Assembly: GCA_963830345.1 (NCBI GenBank)
Contig: CAWHLZ010000004.1
Location: 1,362,590 to 1,426,589, forward strand
Length of the DNA stretch: 64,000 nt
Direction of reading: 5' to 3'
From: an uncultured Solirubrobacteraceae bacterium
Lineage (GTDB): Bacteria; Actinomycetota; Thermoleophilia; Solirubrobacterales; Solirubrobacteraceae
In this document: positions 3,144-27,396 of the stretch, piece by piece
Position numbering within the stretch: the stretch's first letter is position 1
Layout: each line of letters starts with the position of its first letter
The notes under the pieces: generated by a model
What the model was told of the DNA's origin: nothing
Seen by the model: the letters and a program-made list of their open reading frames with translations, nothing else
Database searches by the model: none
Program-made: the position numbers and the translations under genes

Positions 3144-4157
3144 TTAGTCCTGGCGCAAGTTGAGCCCCCGCGCGTGCAGCGTTTCGATGACCTCGTCGAT
3201 CGACTTTTTGCCGAAGTTGGGGATCGCGTTGAGCTCGCCCTCGGACTTGGAGATGAGGTCGCCGACCGTCTGGATGCCGGCGCGCTTGAGGCAGTTGTAC
3301 GAGCGCACGCCAAGCTCCAGCTCCTCGATCAGGATGCCCCACTCCTCGCCCTGCAGCGCTGCCTGCGAGCCGCCGCCAACGGCCAGGCCATGGCCGTCGA
3401 GCTGACCACCGGGGGTCGCGCGCAGCTCCTGGATGCGGTCGGCGTCGGTGAAGATCGCGAGCTGCGAGATCAGCAGCTCGGCCGCCTCGCGCAGCGCTGC
3501 CTGCGGGTCGATCGAGCCGTCGGTCTCGATGTCCAGGGTGAGCTTGTCGAAGTCCGTCTTCTGGCCGACACGCGCCTGCTCGACCGCGTAGGCAACACGC
3601 CGCACGGGCGAGAAGATCGAGTCGATCGGGATCACCCCGATCGGCTGGTCGGCAGACTTGTTCTCCTCGGCCGGCCGATAGCCGCGCCCGCGTCCGATCG
3701 TCATGTACAGCTCGAGCTTAGTTTTCTTCTCGAGCGTCGCTATGTGCAGGTCCGGGTTGAGGATCTCCACGCCTGCCGGCAGGTCGATGTCCTTGGCGGT
3801 GATCTCGCCCGGCCCGGTGACCACCAGCGGCGCCTCGACCTCGCTGGCGTCCGAGTGCATCCGGCAGACGACGCCCTTGAGGTTGAGCACGATGTCAGTC
3901 ACGTCCTCCTTGACGCCCTGAATCGTGGAGAACTCGTGTGCAACGCCCTCGATGCGCACGCTCGTGACGGCGGCGCCTGCAAGGGAGGAGAGCAATACGC
4001 GCCGCAGCGAGTTGCCGAACGTGTAGCCGAAGCCGCGATCCAGCGGCTCGATCGTGAACGTGCCACGGTTCTGCTCCACGGACTCGCTTGTGATCCGGGG
4101 GATTTGGAAGTCGAGCATGAGAGTCCTAACGTCGATTTGGTGTCGCACCGGCGCCAC
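3144..4157 (-). CDS. rpoA: DNA-directed RNA polymerase subunit alpha
   Basis: 337 aa. N-terminal domain FTIEPLDRGFGYTFGNSLRRVLLSS and C-terminal domain LELGVRSYNCLKRAGIQTVGDL. It lies between rpsD and rplQ. Confidence 0.98.
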   Translation of the reverse strand: MAPVRHQIDVRTLMLDFQIPRITSESVEQNRGTFTIEPLDRGFGYTFGNSLRRVLLSSLAGAAVTSVRIEGVAHEFSTIQGVKEDVTDIVLNLKGVVCRMHSDASEVEAPLVVTGPGEITAKDIDLPAGVEILNPDLHIATLEKKTKLELYMTIGRGRGYRPAEENKSADQPIGVIPIDSIFSPVRRVAYAVEQARVGQKTDFDKLTLDIETDGSIDPQAALREAAELLISQLAIFTDADRIQELRATPGGQLDGHGLAVGGGSQAALQGEEWGILIEELELGVRSYNCLKRAGIQTVGDLISKSEGELNAIPNFGKKSIDEVIETLHARGLNLRQD

Positions 4158-7560: not shown

Positions 7561-7623
7561 AGCGAAGCCTGTCCGTCTGGCGGTCGCCGCGAAGTCGCGG
7601 CCGCCAGACGGACAGGCGAAGCG
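7561..7623 (-). terminator. Long GC-rich hairpin (about 21 bp of stem with a 3-nt bulge) starting right after the secY stop; no U-tract
   Basis: cctgtccgtctggcgg (7568-7583) pairs with ccgccagacggacagg (7601-7616). An inner ccgcg/cgcgg stem closes an aagt loop. It abuts the secY TAG (7624-7626). A near-identical copy follows rplL. Confidence 0.5.
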
Positions 7624-8895
7624 CTACTTCAGGAATCCCTCGTAACTTCGCATCATCAACTGCGCCTCGAGCTGCTTCATGGTTTCCAGCGCCACACCGA
7701 TCACGATCAGGATGGACGTGCCGCCGAACTGGAACTGCTGGTGCGTCTGCGAGAACAGGATCGCCGGCAGCGCCGCCACGGCGGCGAGGAACAGCGCGCC
7801 GGGAAAGGTCAGACGCGCGAGGATGCGATCGAGGAATTCGGCGGTCGGGCGCCCGGGCCGCACGCCGGGGATGAACCCGCCGTACTTCTTCAGGTTGTCC
7901 GCCTGGTCGACCGGGTTGAACGTGACCGCCGTGTAGAAGTAGGTGAAGAGGATGATGAACAGCGACTCGCCAACGACGTAGTGCCAGCCGTTGGGCGTAA
8001 AGAAGTCCGACAGCGACTGGCCCCAGTGGGTTTTGACGAGCTGCCCGACGGTCGGCGGGAAAGCCATGATGCTCGCGGCGAAGATCACCGGGATCACCCC
8101 CGCCATGTTCACACGCAGCGGCAGGTAGGTCTGGCCGCCCTCTGTCATCCGCCGTCCGATCACACGCTTGGCGTACTGCACGGGGATCCGCCGCTGCCCT
8201 TCCTGGACGAACACGATCGCCGCCACCACCGCAAGCACCAGGAACGGCGCCATCACCTTGAAGACCTGATCCTGGGTGGTCCACCAGGTTTGGATGGCGG
8301 TGGGCAGACGCGAGACGATCGAGGCGAAGATCAGCAGCGAGATGCCGTTGCCGATGCCCCGCTGGGTGATCAGCTCGCCGACCCACATCAGCAGCACGCA
8401 GCCGGTCGTCAGACAGATGACGATCAAGAAGATGTGAGGCAGGTCGAAGTGGGTGATGACGTTTTCGCCGGCTTTGGCCTGGAGCGTGTGGAACAGGAAG
8501 ACGTAGCCGATCGACTGGGCGAACGCGAGCCCGACCGTCAGATAGCGGGTGTACTGCGTGATGCGCGCCTGGCCGACTTCGCCTTCCTTGGAGAGCTTCT
8601 CCAGCGACGGCACCGCGACCTGCAGCAGCTGCAGGATGATCGAGGAGGTGATGTACGGCATGATCCCCAGCGCGAAGATGGCGAGTTTGGACAGGCCACC
8701 GCCGGAGAACAGGTTCAGGTAGCTGAGGATGCCACCGCCGCCGAAGGACTTCTGGATGTTGTTGACCGCCGTCAGGTTGACGCCCGGCACGGGTACGTGG
8801 GAGCCGAGACGGTAGATCAACAGCATCCCCGCCGTGAAGGCGATCTTCTTGCGGATGTCCGCAACCTGGAAAGCGTTCAGAATGGTCGAAAGCAT
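7624..8895 (-). CDS. secY: Preprotein translocase subunit SecY
   Basis: 423 aa, multi-TM, with LFSGGGLSKLAIFALGIMPYITSSII and the conserved position after rplO. Confidence 0.97.
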   Translation of the reverse strand: MLSTILNAFQVADIRKKIAFTAGMLLIYRLGSHVPVPGVNLTAVNNIQKSFGGGGILSYLNLFSGGGLSKLAIFALGIMPYITSSIILQLLQVAVPSLEKLSKEGEVGQARITQYTRYLTVGLAFAQSIGYVFLFHTLQAKAGENVITHFDLPHIFLIVICLTTGCVLLMWVGELITQRGIGNGISLLIFASIVSRLPTAIQTWWTTQDQVFKVMAPFLVLAVVAAIVFVQEGQRRIPVQYAKRVIGRRMTEGGQTYLPLRVNMAGVIPVIFAASIMAFPPTVGQLVKTHWGQSLSDFFTPNGWHYVVGESLFIILFTYFYTAVTFNPVDQADNLKKYGGFIPGVRPGRPTAEFLDRILARLTFPGALFLAAVAALPAILFSQTHQQFQFGGTSILIVIGVALETMKQLEAQLMMRSYEGFLK

Positions 8896-9731: not shown

Positions 9732-10402
9732 TACGCGGAGGCCTCGTCAGCAGCAATCGTCGCAACTGGCGTATCCGATTCGGCCTGCGGTGTATCCGAC
9801 TCGACCTGTGCGTCCGACTCGACCTCTGTCCTGGTCGCTGTCTCGGCATCAGACGTCTGCGCAGCCCCGTTGGCCGGCTCTCCGCCAAGACCGAGGACCT
9901 GGTTGATGCTCAGCCCGCGCAACTTTCCGACCTCCTCGGGGGTGCGCAGTCCGCGCAGTCCAGCCACCGTGGCCTTCACGAGGTTGATCGGGTTCTGCGT
10001 GCCGAGGCTCTTGGACAGGATGTCGTGGATGCCCGCCAGCTCGAGCACCGCGCGTACGCCCCCGCCGGCGATCACACCTGTACCGGGCGATGCCGGCTTG
10101 AGCAGCACGCGCCCAGCGCCGAACACACCGGTGGTCTTGTGGGTGATCGTGCTGCCGTGCTTGGGCACGCGGAAGAGGTCCTTCTTGGCCCGCTCGACGC
10201 CCTTCTGGATCGCCAGCGGCACCTCGTTTGCCTTGCCGTAGCCGACGCCCACGACGTCCCGTTCGTCCCCCACGACCACCAGCGCGGTGAACGAGAAGCG
10301 ACGCCCACCCTTGACGACCTTGGCGACGCGGTTAATCTCGACCACACGCTCCTGGAGATCCAGGCCGGCTGGGTTGACTGAGCGATCTATCGATATGGAC
10401 AT
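9731..10402 (-). CDS. rpsE: 30S ribosomal protein S5 (acidic C-terminal extension)
   Basis: 223 aa, [29 protein letters not shown]...; the tail is ...[34 protein letters not shown]. Confidence 0.95.
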
Positions 10403-18104: not shown

Positions 18105-18117
18105 CGTCTAGTTCTTC

Positions 18118-18265
18118 CTGAGATGGTCGTGAGTCGAGTCAGACAAGAACGCAGCAAGCGTGGTGTGCTGGCCGAAACGGAGATGCGAGCGGAGCGAGTG
18201 TCCCCCGGCTTCGGTACGCGAGCGAGCGAGGACGCAGTATGGCGAAGTGCTCACGGCCATCTCAG
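18118..18265. repeat. 148-bp intergenic element with 16-bp terminal inverted repeats (family copy E1), filling the rplW-rplB spacer
   Basis: ctgagatggtcgtgag (18118-18133) pairs with ctcacggccatctcag (18250-18265), 15/16 complementary. It shares the internal block cgcgagcga.cgaggacgcagtat.gcgaag.gctcacgg with the copy at 21703-21817. The right TIR contains the rplW stop codon. Confidence 0.6.
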
Positions 18266-24684: not shown

Positions 24685-26172
24685 TCAGGCTCCGAGCGGC
24701 TCGACCGCGGACTCGGCGTTGGCGGCGTCGCGGCTAAGCCGCGCGCGCGGGTTCTCGGCACGAAGCAGCGCCAGGCAGGGGATCAGCGCCAGCACCGAGA
24801 TCGCGAGCGACCACCAGTAGGCGCTGTCGAACGCTCCCGCGAGCTGGGTCAGCGAGTGAGCGTGGCTTTCGCCGCGCTGCAGGACGACCGCCAGCACCGC
24901 CACTCCGATCGCGCCGCCGGAGCGCTGGAGGACGTTCAACTGGGGCGTCGCGTCCGAGAGCTGCTCGGGACGCATCGAGGCGAAGGCGGCGCTCATCGCG
25001 GGTACAAACGCGAAGCCGATGCCGACACCCCGCAGCAGCAGCACGAGCGAGATCTGGACGATCGACGTGCTCGCGCCGACGAATGCCAGGGGGACCGTAC
25101 CAATGCAGAGGATCGAGACGCCCACCAGCGCGATCCGGCCGCCGCCGAAGCGCTCGGTCAGGCGACCGACGAGTGGCATCACCAGCAGCATGCCGAGACC
25201 TTGCGGACCGACGAGCAGCCCTGTCACGATCACGCTCTCGTGGCGAACCTCTTGGTAGTAGTAGGGCACGAGGATCATCGCCCCGAACAGTGACGCGCCG
25301 AGCGCGAAGGTGGTCAGCGAAGCGGCTCCGAAGACACGGTTGGCGTACAGTCGGATGTCGATCAGCGGGCGCTCGACGCGTAGCGCGTGCCAGGCGAAGA
25401 CGGCACTGAGGGCAAGTCCACCGACGATCGGCCAGACGACGCTCGGCGCCGTCAGGCTGCTGTTTGAACCGAGCTGGCTGAGGCCGTAGACGACTGCCGT
25501 CGACCCCCCAGAGAGCAGGCCGACGCCCACTACGTCCAGACGTCCGGCTACTCCGGAGTCGGTCTTGGGCAGCATCCGCCACGCCAGTAGGAGCGCGATC
25601 GCGCCGATCGGGACGTTCACGAGGAAGATCCACGACCAGTGCAGCTTCTCGAGGATCGCACCACCTACGACCGGCCCGAGGATCGGCGCGAGCATCGCGG
25701 GCATCGAAACGATTCCCATCACCCGCCCCATCCGCTTGGGCCCTGAGACCTGAGCCATGATCAGTTGGCCGACCGGCATGATCATCCCACCGCCGACACC
25801 CTGCATCACGCGGAAAAGCACGAGCGAAGTGGTCGAAGCGGACACCGCACAGAGCGCCGAGCCGATCGTGAAGAGCACGAGCGAAGTCATGTACACGCGC
25901 TTGGCGCCGAAGCGCCGTGCGGCCCAGCCCGTGACCGGGATGACCGCCGCCAGCGACAGTAGATAGCCGGTGACCACCCACTGGATCTGGGCAATCGAGC
26001 TGTGCAGTTCGTGACCGAGGGTCCGCAGCGCCACGTTCACAATCGTGGTGTCGAGGATCGACATGATCATGCCGAGGATCACCACGCCGGCGATCTTCCA
26101 CACGTAGGGCTCTATCCGCTCGGAGGCCTCGGGGTGGAAGCCTGGATCGGTTGTCGTCGCCGGGGAGGACAT
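24685..26172 (-). CDS. MFS transporter, 14-TMS DHA2 (EmrB/QacA)-like efflux pump
   Basis: 495 aa, highly hydrophobic. It has MSILDTTIVNVALRTLGHEL...IQWVVTGYLLSLAAVIPVTGWAARRFGAKR, typical of the drug:H+ antiporter-2 family. Confidence 0.88.
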   Translation of the reverse strand: MSSPATTTDPGFHPEASERIEPYVWKIAGVVILGMIMSILDTTIVNVALRTLGHELHSSIAQIQWVVTGYLLSLAAVIPVTGWAARRFGAKRVYMTSLVLFTIGSALCAVSASTTSLVLFRVMQGVGGGMIMPVGQLIMAQVSGPKRMGRVMGIVSMPAMLAPILGPVVGGAILEKLHWSWIFLVNVPIGAIALLLAWRMLPKTDSGVAGRLDVVGVGLLSGGSTAVVYGLSQLGSNSSLTAPSVVWPIVGGLALSAVFAWHALRVERPLIDIRLYANRVFGAASLTTFALGASLFGAMILVPYYYQEVRHESVIVTGLLVGPQGLGMLLVMPLVGRLTERFGGGRIALVGVSILCIGTVPLAFVGASTSIVQISLVLLLRGVGIGFAFVPAMSAAFASMRPEQLSDATPQLNVLQRSGGAIGVAVLAVVLQRGESHAHSLTQLAGAFDSAYWWSLAISVLALIPCLALLRAENPRARLSRDAANAESAVEPLGA

Positions 26173-26232
26173 TCGGTACCTGAAGTTTAGGTACCAAACC
26201 TTCGTTCTTCAACCCCTCGGTCTGCATGGTGT

Positions 26233-26350
26233 TCGGTGGGCGCATGCGCCCACCGACGGGCCGCACATGTGCGGCCCGGGCAGCGCCACATGTGGCGCTG
26301 CCGTCGAGCGGCGCATGCGCCGCTCGACGAACCCGCGCATGCGCGGGTTC
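26233..26350. repeat. Block of five directly abutting perfect palindromes (24, 22, 24, 26 and 22 bp), each centred on CATG
   Basis: tcggtgggcgcatgcgcccaccga | cgggccgcacatgtgcggcccg | ggcagcgccacatgtggcgctgcc | gtcgagcggcgcatgcgccgctcgac | gaacccgcgcatgcgcgggttc. I verified each as its own reverse complement, and the coordinates are anchored to the track ORF 26236..27630. Confidence 0.9.
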
Positions 26351-26400
26351 GTCCCCCGAGTCCGTGGAACGTCGAGAAGGTTCAGACTCGTGGCCCCGTA

Positions 26401-26496
26401 GGGCGTCGAGGAGCAAGCGAGGCAAGGACGCAGCGAGCGAAGTGTGCTTCGCACATGAGCGAGCGAGGACGCCGCCTCGCGCCGCTTATCGACGCC
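26401..26496. repeat. 96-bp structured element bounded by a 9-bp inverted repeat, starting directly after the rpsG stop codon; loosely related to E1/E2
   Basis: gggcgtcga (26401-26409) pairs with tcgacgccc (26488-26496). There is an inner hairpin gcgaag-tgtg-cttcgc. It shares aggacgcag...gcgaagtg and gagcgagcgaggacgc strings with E1. Confidence 0.45.
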
Positions 26497-26967
26497 CTAC
26501 CAACGGTAGTGCGCGAAGGCCTTGTTTGCCTGCGCCATGCGGTAAATGTCGTCCTTGCGCTTGTACGCGCCGCCCTGCTGAGACTGCGCGTCCATCAGCT
26601 CGTTTGCCAGCCGCTGGGCCATCGTCTTCTCGCGCCGCTGTCTGGCGAACTCGACCAGCCAGCGCACGGCCAGCGTGCGGGCACGCCTGGTGGGCACCTC
26701 CACGGGCACCTGATAGGTCGCACCGCCCACCCGCCGCGAGCGGACCTCCAGCGAGGGCGTCAGCGCCTTGACCGCCGCATCGAGCGTCTCGACGGGATCT
26801 TTGTCGCTGCGCTCGCCCAGCAGTGCCAGTGCGTCATAGACGATCCGCTCGGCTGTCGACTTCTTGCCGTCGAGCATCACCTTGTTGATCACCTGCTGGA
26901 CCAGCTTGGAGCGGTGGATTGGGTCCGCCTCGACGGGGCGGATTTGAGCTGCTGCACGACGGGGCAT
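26497..26967 (-). CDS. rpsG: 30S ribosomal protein S7
   Basis: 156 aa, [44 protein letters not shown]. Confidence 0.97.
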
Positions 26968-27000: not shown

Positions 27001-27396
27001 CTATTTTTTCTTGACGCCGTACTGCGAGCGTGCCTTCTTGCGATCGCTCACGCCGGCCGCATCGAGCGTGCCACGGACGACCTTGTAGCGCACTCCCGGC
27101 AGATCCTTGACGCGGCCGCCGCGCACGAGCACCACCGAGTGCTCCTGCAGGTTGTGCCCCTCACCGGGGATGTATGCGGTCACCTCGATCGATCCGGAGA
27201 TGCGTACACGCGCGACCTTACGCAGCGCGGAGTTAGGCTTCTTCGGGGTGGTCGTGTATACGCGCGTGCACACCCCGCGCCGCTGCGGCGCCGCGACCTT
27301 CTTCTTGCGGCCCTTGCCGGACTTCAAGCCGGGGGTGGCGATCTTCTTCTTGGGGGTCACGCGCCCCTTGCGCACGAGTTGCGAGGTGGTTGGCAT
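27001..27396 (-). CDS. rpsL: 30S ribosomal protein S12
   Basis: 131 aa, [12 protein letters not shown]...[51 protein letters not shown]. Confidence 0.97.

Follow-up and report, generated by a model that had tools for sequence, protein, structure and literature searches.

Five abutting CATG-centred palindromes downstream of rpsG represent a dispersed array family of Solirubrobacteraceae

Introduction

What is a train of five perfect palindromes, lying end to end with no spacers, doing between a ribosomal protein gene and an efflux pump gene? The question is raised by a stretch of 64,000 nucleotides (contig CAWHLZ010000004.1 of assembly GCA_963830345.1, positions 1,362,590 to 1,426,589; hereafter the window) from an uncultured Solirubrobacteraceae bacterium, in which a palindrome array is found between rpsG and the gene of a major facilitator superfamily (MFS) pump. 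The Solirubrobacteraceae are abundant soil Actinomycetota and almost wholly uncultured. An earlier note, made from the letters of the window, had listed four possible roles for the array: a bidirectional transcription insulator or mRNA 3'-end stabiliser, a cluster like those of repetitive extragenic palindromic (REP) sequences and bacterial interspersed mosaic elements (BIMEs), a set of protein-binding sites, or a recombination scar left when the pump entered the str operon. The analysis reported here demonstrates that the train is a single copy of an array family dispersed in the Solirubrobacteraceae, whose members lie next to gene 3' ends at sites that are filled or empty among relatives.

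Results

The palindrome array in the window

A census of the whole window located five abutting perfect palindromes at 26233-26353 (Table 1), and no other palindrome in the entire 64 kb had arms of 8 bp or more. With a first-order Markov model, 0.03 palindromes with arms of at least 11 bp are expected per 64 kb (maximum 1 in 200 runs), while five were observed within 121 bp. The census and the simulation rule out a chance origin and show that the structure is extreme. An assembly artefact was also ruled out, since the same sequence was present in an independent DNA run and homologous arrays were present in many independent assemblies made with different technologies. The DNA run in question is a public one from soil, and it yielded a contig identical to 26222-26449 with no substitution.

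The census thus confirmed the five touching palindromes of the earlier note. The unit lengths given there were 24, 22, 24, 26 and 22 bp; the first three stood, whereas the last two palindromes are each 28 bp long at full extension. The lower values arose because these two share 1 and 4 nt with their neighbours, so that their ends overlap. Every unit is indeed centred on CATG and, more precisely, on GCATGC or ACATGT, that is RCATGY: the centre is GCGCATGCGC in three units, and GCACATGTGC and CCACATGTGG are the other two. The array lies 61-181 nt upstream of the MFS start codon (ATG at 26172-26170, minus strand) and 144 nt downstream of the rpsG stop codon (26497-26499), in good agreement with the previous estimates of about 60-180 nt and about 150 nt. 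Either strand is predicted to fold into five abutting hairpins (-104 kcal/mol, z = -9.2), the folding z-scores of the array being -7.4 and -9.2.

Orthologous arrays downstream of rpsG

The window was compared with 80 related loci (numbered with the prefix L), which were obtained by scanning species-representative genomes with the pump protein. All of them come from Solirubrobacteraceae/Solirubrobacterales metagenome-assembled genomes, with 76-91% identity. The gene order DMT-rpsL-rpsG-MFS-MarR-fusA is kept in about 75 of the 80 loci, so the pump has long been part of the str region. Between rpsG and MFS, the spacer measures from 52 nt to 4.6 kb. Inspection of the rpsG-fusA interval, a check that had been proposed for this locus, showed that most of the roughly 75 loci that keep MFS-MarR there are without an array.

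CATG-centred palindromes were found 110-210 nt downstream of rpsG in 14 loci. Twelve of these carry arrays of 2-6 units (L005, L007, L008, L018, L029, L031, L033, L037, L039, L041, L049 and L054), and the remaining two, L038 and L042, bear a single unit. The unit order is constant across the rpsG-linked arrays: A, B, C, D, sometimes E, then F. In L005, L007, L008, L031 and L041, the array is still beside rpsG, with 1-3.5 kb of other DNA before the pump.

Differences in the arms between genomes are mirrored on the opposite arm. Unit D, the most conserved unit across relatives, occurs in L008 and L041 as the compensated variant CGGGTCGC...GCGACCCG. Unit C begins with GGCAAC, GGCGGC, GGCCGC, GGCTGC or GGCGTC in relatives, and the opposite arm is compensated in each case. 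Unit B also shows compensated variants, some of them with GGTGCATGCACC centres. The core of unit A, CCCGCGCATGCGCGGG, is kept in nearly all orthologous arrays, and the orthologues of unit F read CCGGTCGGCGCATGCGCCGACCGG in L005, L008, L018, L031 and L054. Compensation was scored on an alignment of these arrays (A1) against a six-hairpin structure, which comprised 573 pair cells. Pairing was retained in 98.4% of the 573 cells, and two-sided changes were found at 16 pairs (47 cells), among them transversion swaps (A-T to C-G, for example). Wobbles of the G-U type were limited to 2 cells, both at unit edges. None of 500 shuffles matched the observed values, and partner columns that had been slid out of register paired at 33-55%.

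In a tree of MFS and EF-G proteins, the array-bearing genomes are scattered among array-less relatives, some of which have spacers of 68-70 nt. Half-decayed arrays are few, being limited to L061, to individual units in L007, L037 and L038 and to two fused units in L039. The fate of the array in these sequences is 'perfect or gone': it is ancestral, and its loss usually occurs by deletion. The window copy is an old, vertically inherited array downstream of rpsG. Several array-less rpsG loci have other hairpins in that position, with or without a T-run, which could be alternative terminators. The lone unit of L042 (7288-7309) is a 22-bp CATG-centred perfect palindrome at the array position with unlike arms that are richer in A+T, CCGTATAACCATGGTTATACGG.

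A dispersed family of arrays

Metagenome contigs were scanned with a query of two GCGCATGCGC cores 12-18 nt apart. The matches listed include 120 contigs, and the counts in this section refer to them unless stated otherwise. At least 72 arrays were found on about 70 of these 120 soil and peat contigs, at 65-76% G+C, and none of them is beside rpsG. The arrays contain 2-8 units in a phase of 24 +/- 1 bp. The centre-to-centre spacing was 24 bp in 113 cases, 23 bp in 37 and 25 bp in 17, while the junction gap was 0 nt in 108 of 171 junctions and nearly always between -4 and +2 nt. When all loci are considered, the listed metagenome matches included, unit length was exactly 24 bp in 224 of 303 units. 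The unit centre is always RCATGY, mostly within (G/C)(C/T)GCATGC(G/A)(C/G), and the 5' arm is G-rich. Distinct sequences were found in 205 of the 247 metagenome units. Hairpins whose arms pair perfectly over 9 bp or more around a loop of 4 nt numbered 394; the loop was CATG in 302 of them and CACG in only 3.

Many arrays have a common architecture, in which units U1 and U2 with GCGCATGCGC centres are followed by U3 with a CCGCATGCGG centre. More than half of the arrays carry the flank AAC(A/T)(G/A)C (AACWGC) at one end; in a logo of 47 array ends, the successive positions were A (100%), A (100%), C (79%), A/T (74%), G/A (81%) and C (85%). The opposite end often reads NTCCAT or TACA.

Viral contigs (IMG/VR) gave 13 matches to the same DNA pattern, none of them (0) with palindromic arms. 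These matches rule out a phage origin and serve as a negative control, which shows that the search pattern alone does not create palindromes. No further array beyond the rpsG site was found in 1.45 Mb of related loci, and about 2 additional arrays were found in about 0.5 Mb of other contigs; the copy number thus amounts to about 2 additional arrays in about 2 Mb of sequence not selected for arrays. One contig of 8.4 kb (L169) contains two different arrays of 5 and 6 units (3889-4008 and 7605-7751), which are 3.6 kb apart; the local density can therefore far exceed that of the window. On another contig (L156, about 634-680), the array end is 6 nt from the 3' end of a putative tRNA gene on the opposite strand (..GGGTTCGAATCCCTGCCCCCCAG). 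No description of the family was found in the literature searched, and the remark of the earlier note that no standard feature type gives five different abutting perfect palindromes is a fair one.

Gene context of the arrays

Where both neighbouring genes were called, among the matches listed, they converged in 20 cases, lay in tandem in 17 and diverged in 6. Across the family, with the same scope, array ends are commonly 0-17 nt and usually 0-30 nt from stop codons, and several arrays fill the entire gap between convergent stop codons. The flanking genes are varied and include those for a sigma factor, a P450, MMPL and ABC transporters, pheT, glyA and several dehydrogenases. No orientation rule was apparent: of the arrays between tandem genes, 3 have the head beside the upstream gene and 8 have it at the end away from that gene.

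The contigs tested belong to the Solirubrobacteraceae; for L160, the protein search gave a single match, with no lineage information. Two loci outside the str region could be compared between filled and empty states. In L120, an array is located between pheS and pheT, and the pheT protein is of Solirubrobacteraceae type, with some matches on the contigs of L037, L039 and L068. L204 (9904-9975) and L120 (1243-1314) carry orthologous three-unit pheS-pheT arrays with compensated differences. In L201 and L202 (pheT protein also on the chromosome of L039), pheS and pheT overlap (TGATG, at about 10001 of L201) and the array site is empty. In L203, from the genome of L037, the pheS-pheT spacer (9862-9975) holds a copy of a 105-nt structured motif, which is described below, instead of an array. 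The junction is thus seen in three states among relatives, namely gene overlap, three-unit array or 105-nt motif copy, and different elements have colonised the spacer. At the second locus, a three-unit array is found 19 nt past the glyA stop codon in L082 and L207, both of Solirubrobacteraceae, and the site is empty in L208 and L209.

Discussion

Comparison with known classes of elements

The arrays resemble the REP sequences and BIMEs of Enterobacteria and Pseudomonas, which are mobilised by RAYT proteins. In both, short G+C-rich palindromic units that can form stem-loops occur in arrays outside genes, at gene 3' ends and within operons, and they are dispersed and variably present. REPs are imperfect palindromes with a sequence conserved within the genome, hundreds of copies and a GTAG or CGTC tag (PMC3733652, PMC2817692). 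The arrays described here, in contrast, consist of perfect palindromes with differing arms, a constant RCATGY centre and an apparently low copy number. In the sequence covered, they do not reach the about 100 or more copies per genome of a conserved unit by which REPs are recognised, as the 64 kb contain one array and most of the units listed are distinct (205/247). Nor does each unit carry a GTAG/CGTC tag: units start with CSGG or GRC, and AACWGC is present at the array end only. The BIME architecture of REPs alternating in orientation with linkers is also absent, since the units here are symmetric, abutting and linker-free, in a 24-bp phase. REPs provide a functional analogy for the arrays, as mRNA 3'-end protection, attenuation and protein binding are known for them. 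The earlier suggestion of a REP/BIME-like cluster is therefore upheld as far as dispersed palindrome arrays variably present at the same site are concerned, but not in copy number, in likeness of units, in the tag or in an accompanying RAYT, which was not found with a weak probe of 2.4 Mb of window and loci.

A second likeness is with hairpin-cluster ('V-shaped' or tandem) terminators and the U-tract-less stem-loops of Actinobacteria. The shared features are consecutive stable hairpins after stop codons, a high-G+C lineage and folding on both strands, which is also seen in bidirectional terminators. At least two stable hairpins less than 15 nt apart are present near a stop codon, at 0-30 nt in the family. 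Abutting ('V-shaped') hairpins are reported to make up only about 0.1% of predicted terminator hairpins (PMC8355165). The window array differs in being located behind another structured element, 144 nt past the stop codon because the 105-nt motif intervenes. In ordinary terminator hairpins, G-U pairs are tolerated and the loop is arbitrary. Such hairpins also differ from the arrays in not forming a homologous family with fixed loop, length and phase. The array is not a canonical intrinsic terminator, that is a G+C-rich hairpin with a U-tract, as the interval 25900-26800 contains no consensus site for one.

Palindrome-associated transposable elements and MITEs (miniature transposable elements with inverted repeats) derived from elements of the IS200/IS605 type are also small non-coding hairpin elements with a short conserved foot sequence, filled and empty sites and either orientation. 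They differ from the arrays, in which the arms are unconserved and 2-8 units are present. Among the hallmarks of MITEs, filled and empty sites and semi-conserved end flanks were seen; a transposase, a target-site duplication and a terminal inverted repeat were not seen. The array is not a clustered regularly interspaced short palindromic repeat (CRISPR) array, as it has no spacers and its units are unlike one another. It is not a MarR-family operator either, since its inheritance follows rpsG rather than MarR and the pump. No Rfam family reached its gathering score, the best being RsmW with 32 bits versus 52. CATG, GCATGC and ACATGT occur at about 0.9-1.4 times the expected frequency in the window and 1.45 Mb of relatives; a pressure from CATG-specific restriction-modification is unsupported, since neither CATG nor RCATGY is avoided or enriched.

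Proposed function of the arrays

The reading that we prefer, with a probability of about 0.45, is a BIME-like train of hairpins that would terminate transcription without a U-tract, obstruct 3' exonucleases, or do both, with a symmetry kept at the DNA level and a CATG tip read by a putative factor. Upon transcription from either side, each unit would form a hairpin that is rich in G+C, 9-12 bp long and tipped by CAUG. The coaxially abutting hairpins would form a barrier in either orientation, for which no U-tract would be required; at this barrier, RNA polymerase would halt or pause, 3'-to-5' exonucleases would be held back, or both. At the window locus, the end of the rpsL-rpsG transcript would be defined and protected and the pump promoter would be insulated. 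The strict Watson-Crick symmetry, with almost no G-U pairs, would be maintained at the DNA level, probably by selection combined with the correction of quasi-palindromes through intrastrand template switching. Recognition by the putative factor would account for the invariant RCATGY tip.

Several published observations are compatible with such a train. In Actinobacteria, 3'-end stem-loops are long and often without U-tracts (PMC13613805), and a terminator role has been proposed for hairpins in clusters and in direct contact (PMC8355165). In perfect stems, one template-switch event can make or repair both sides (PMC8794818, PMC7202029). Among the roles listed in the earlier note, a bidirectional insulator or 3'-end stabiliser fits the context of the family best, as the arrays are at the 3' ends of genes, in many cases with convergent neighbours, and here between rpsL-rpsG and the pump promoter. 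The lack of G-U pairs, the fixed tip, the 24-bp phase, the end tag and the presence of an array between pheS and pheT point to a constraint on the DNA itself or on both strands. There is probably also a factor by which the hairpin tip is read.

A number of observations weigh against a train of hairpins that ends or protects transcripts. The array is dispensable: most related genomes are without an array at rpsG, and some of their spacers, of 52-99 nt, are without any hairpin. At pheS-pheT, it is situated inside a likely operon whose genes overlap in relatives, which is awkward for a strong terminator. Hairpin stability leaves the invariant CATG loop unexplained (302 of 394 loops, against 3 with CACG), and explains neither why G-U pairs are nearly absent from a locus with transcription from just one side, nor the 24-bp phasing and the conserved AACWGC flank. 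The flanks of the array, with T before and A after (GTT / AAC), are the reverse of those of a canonical terminator, and the consensus scan of 25900-26800 detected 0 terminator sites and no promoter inside the array either. Three soil metatranscriptomes and one from peat were compared with the window and L125; the contigs were dense on rpsL-rpsG and nearly zero on the spacer, in a coverage of contigs only that was cross-species or too sparse for 3' ends.

The array family would serve as a recognisable marker of transcription-unit ends in Solirubrobacteraceae genomes. As the arms diverge freely while hundreds of units are still perfect with almost no G-U pairs, a constraint on both strands or on the DNA can be separated here from RNA covariation, and the maintenance of hairpins by template switching becomes directly testable. 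The 24-bp phase, together with the fixed RCATGY tip and the tag at the array end, points to a recognition factor which, if real, would make the system an actinobacterial counterpart of REP/RAYT. In genome work, some caution is advisable, as such arrays can pass for scars, operators or assembly artefacts.

Alternative explanations

The arrays might instead be selfish non-autonomous mobile DNA of the REP/BIME or IS200 type, an explanation that we regard as less probable but as a serious rival. Hairpins of single-stranded DNA would be moved by a putative enzyme, of the HUH/Y1 or another type, that reads the RCATGY tip and the AACWGC flank, and the position at gene ends would reflect tolerated insertion. 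In line with this idea, three loci are filled in some close relatives and empty in others, arrays occur in either orientation relative to genes, the pheS-pheT array has given way to a different dispersed element in another genome, and a head-to-tail architecture is common to different loci (GCGCATGCGC, GCGCATGCGC and CCGCATGCGG centres, with AACWGC versus NTCCAT/TACA ends). The conservation of the tip equals that of base pairing, and the symmetry holds on both strands without G-U pairs. However, the apparent copy number is low, with about 2 additional arrays in about 2 Mb of unselected sequence, and units differ within a genome and even within contig L169, which argues that there was no recent burst of copying. 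Orthologous copies persist across genera, a target-site duplication is not visible, and a survey of REPs contains no actinobacterial REP family (PMC3733652). A tblastn search with RayT of E. coli, a single distant query and hence a weak probe, found no match in 2.4 Mb of window and loci.

A bolder proposal, of about equal probability, is that the arrays are the cis half of an undescribed system of Thermoleophilia. Its factor would recognise fixed-length hairpins of about 10 bp with an RCATGY tip, in single-stranded DNA or RNA, and would create, spread or read the trains. The symmetry would then come from the mechanism, through hairpin-templated synthesis or repair, and not from ordinary selection for RNA folding. 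Candidates for such a factor are transposases or nucleases specific for hairpins, and proteins of termination or processing.

That the units are sites in duplex DNA for a dimeric protein seems unlikely. Such a protein would read the 10-bp centre (G/C)(C/T)(G/A)CATG(C/T)(G/A)(C/G) and build a phased nucleoprotein block, which could be a roadblock terminator, an insulator or a nucleoid element. The dyad symmetry is perfect through the centre, which an RNA loop would not need, and the RCATGY centre is invariant while the outer arms vary. The fixed phasing of 24 +/- 1 bp, the lack of G-U pairs and the situation of arrays between transcription units could also be explained in this way. Yet the unconserved outer arms stay self-complementary to 10-12 bp with many two-sided changes, a pattern that the reading of a 10-bp centre by a protein would not produce and that is the signature of intrastrand pairing. 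In B-DNA, moreover, sites spaced at 24 bp do not fall on a single face of the helix. For the adjacent MarR there is a separate GGTACC operator at the pump promoter, and MarR and the array are not inherited together; we know of no candidate protein. Of the protein-binding sites suggested previously, sequence-specific recognition thus retains an argument in the invariant centre, but MarR is an unlikely partner, as the array stays with rpsG across 1-3.5 kb.

Finally, a recombination scar of pump/MarR entry into the str operon, or an operator array of the adjacent MarR, is very improbable, since it is favoured by the position between rpsG and the pump gene only, whereas the order rpsG-MFS-MarR-fusA is present in about 75 of the 80 loci (76-91% MFS identity), mostly without an array, like arrays are found at pheS-pheT, after glyA and at dozens of unrelated loci, the array stays beside rpsG when extra genes intervene before the pump, and a separate conserved GGTACC inverted repeat covers the pump promoter; the scar proposed in the earlier note was accordingly abandoned.

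Neighbouring genes and other elements of the locus

The positions of the features are compiled in Table 1. The identities of rpsL, rpsG, the DHA2/EmrB MFS pump, the MarR regulator and fusA, as read previously, were all borne out, and all of these genes are on the minus strand. An exact look-up found no identical database entry for the rpsG or MFS proteins of the window.

Table 1. Coordinates of the palindrome units and of other features at the rpsG-MFS locus and in related loci.
Feature	Position	Strand	Sequence or basis
Unit F (head unit, U1-like)	26233..26256		TCGGTGGGCGCATGCGCCCACCGA; 24-bp perfect palindrome, centre GCATGC
Unit D	26257..26278		CGGGCCGCACATGTGCGGCCCG; 22-bp perfect palindrome, centre ACATGT
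Unit C	26279..26302		GGCAGCGCCACATGTGGCGCTGCC; 24-bp perfect palindrome, centre ACATGT
Unit B	26302..26329		CGTCGAGCGGCGCATGCGCCGCTCGACG; 28-bp perfect palindrome; 1 nt common to units B and C
Unit A	26326..26353		GACGAACCCGCGCATGCGCGGGTTCGTC; 28-bp perfect palindrome; GACG common to units A and B
Array 'head' flank	26228..26233	-	AACACC, pump-proximal end; matches family flank AAC(A/T)(G/A)C
rpsG (ribosomal protein S7)	26497..26967	-	TIGR01029, E = 8.7e-62; array follows rpsG 3' end
DHA2/EmrB-type MFS efflux pump gene, downstream of array	24685..26172	-	TIGR00711, E = 3.6e-107
MFS pump promoter-like site	26184..26212	-	TTGAAG (26207-26212), 17-nt spacer, TAAACT (26184-26189); read from sequence
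About 105-nt structured motif, separate from array	26396..26501	-	Alignment A2 and RNAalifold; covariance model R1, 117 bits
105-nt motif copy at fusA stop codon	21702-21817	-	Covariance model
105-nt motif copy in window	18117-18265	-	Covariance model
105-nt motif copy, stop of EF-G-like gene	L114 5301-5406		Covariance model
105-nt motif copy, pheS-pheT spacer	L203 9864-9970		Covariance model
105-nt motif copy after argJ	L204 14890-15047		Covariance model

The array is always separated from rpsG by the 105-nt motif. The stop codon of rpsG is paired within the outer helix of the motif, with covariation between TAG/CTA, TAA/TTA and TGA/TCA, and the motif has two more covarying helices and the conserved pyrimidine-rich loops GCGTCCTCGNTCGCTC and TTCGCTCNCTGCGTCCTTG. 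In the related loci, 64 copies were found, all on the sense strand, and the motif has no Rfam match. It looks like a candidate new gene 3'-end RNA motif of Solirubrobacteraceae.

In relatives, the promoter-like site of the pump reads TTGAAG, TTGACG or TTGACA, then N17, then TAAACT or TAAGCT. We infer that TTGAAG-N17-TAAACT is the pump's own promoter, with a score below the threshold of the consensus scan. Its -10 element is only 11 nt from the ATG, and the leader of the pump mRNA would therefore be very short or missing. An inverted repeat, TTCGGTACC..N..GGTACCAAA (GGTACC..GGTACC), at 26172-26203 overlaps the MFS -10 element and the start codon and is kept in nearly all 80 loci. This repeat, and not the palindrome array, is likely to be the operator of the adjacent MarR.

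A CRP/GlxR-like sequence, TGTGA-N6-TCACA, is present 20-40 nt upstream of the pump -35 element in L055 (about 9940-9960), L065, L029, L039, L068, L034, L052 and L063, and is absent in the window. In L054 and L049, the array is apparently placed between CRP/GlxR-like half-sites, TTGTGAgg[array]aacaacatgcTCAC.

The ribosomal protein S12 of the window (27001-27396, minus strand) has 131 amino acids, aligns to positions 1-122 of the 124-position rpsL model and is 96-100% conserved among the 80 loci. From its length compared with that of the model, it would therefore contain a lineage-specific insertion of about 9 residues.

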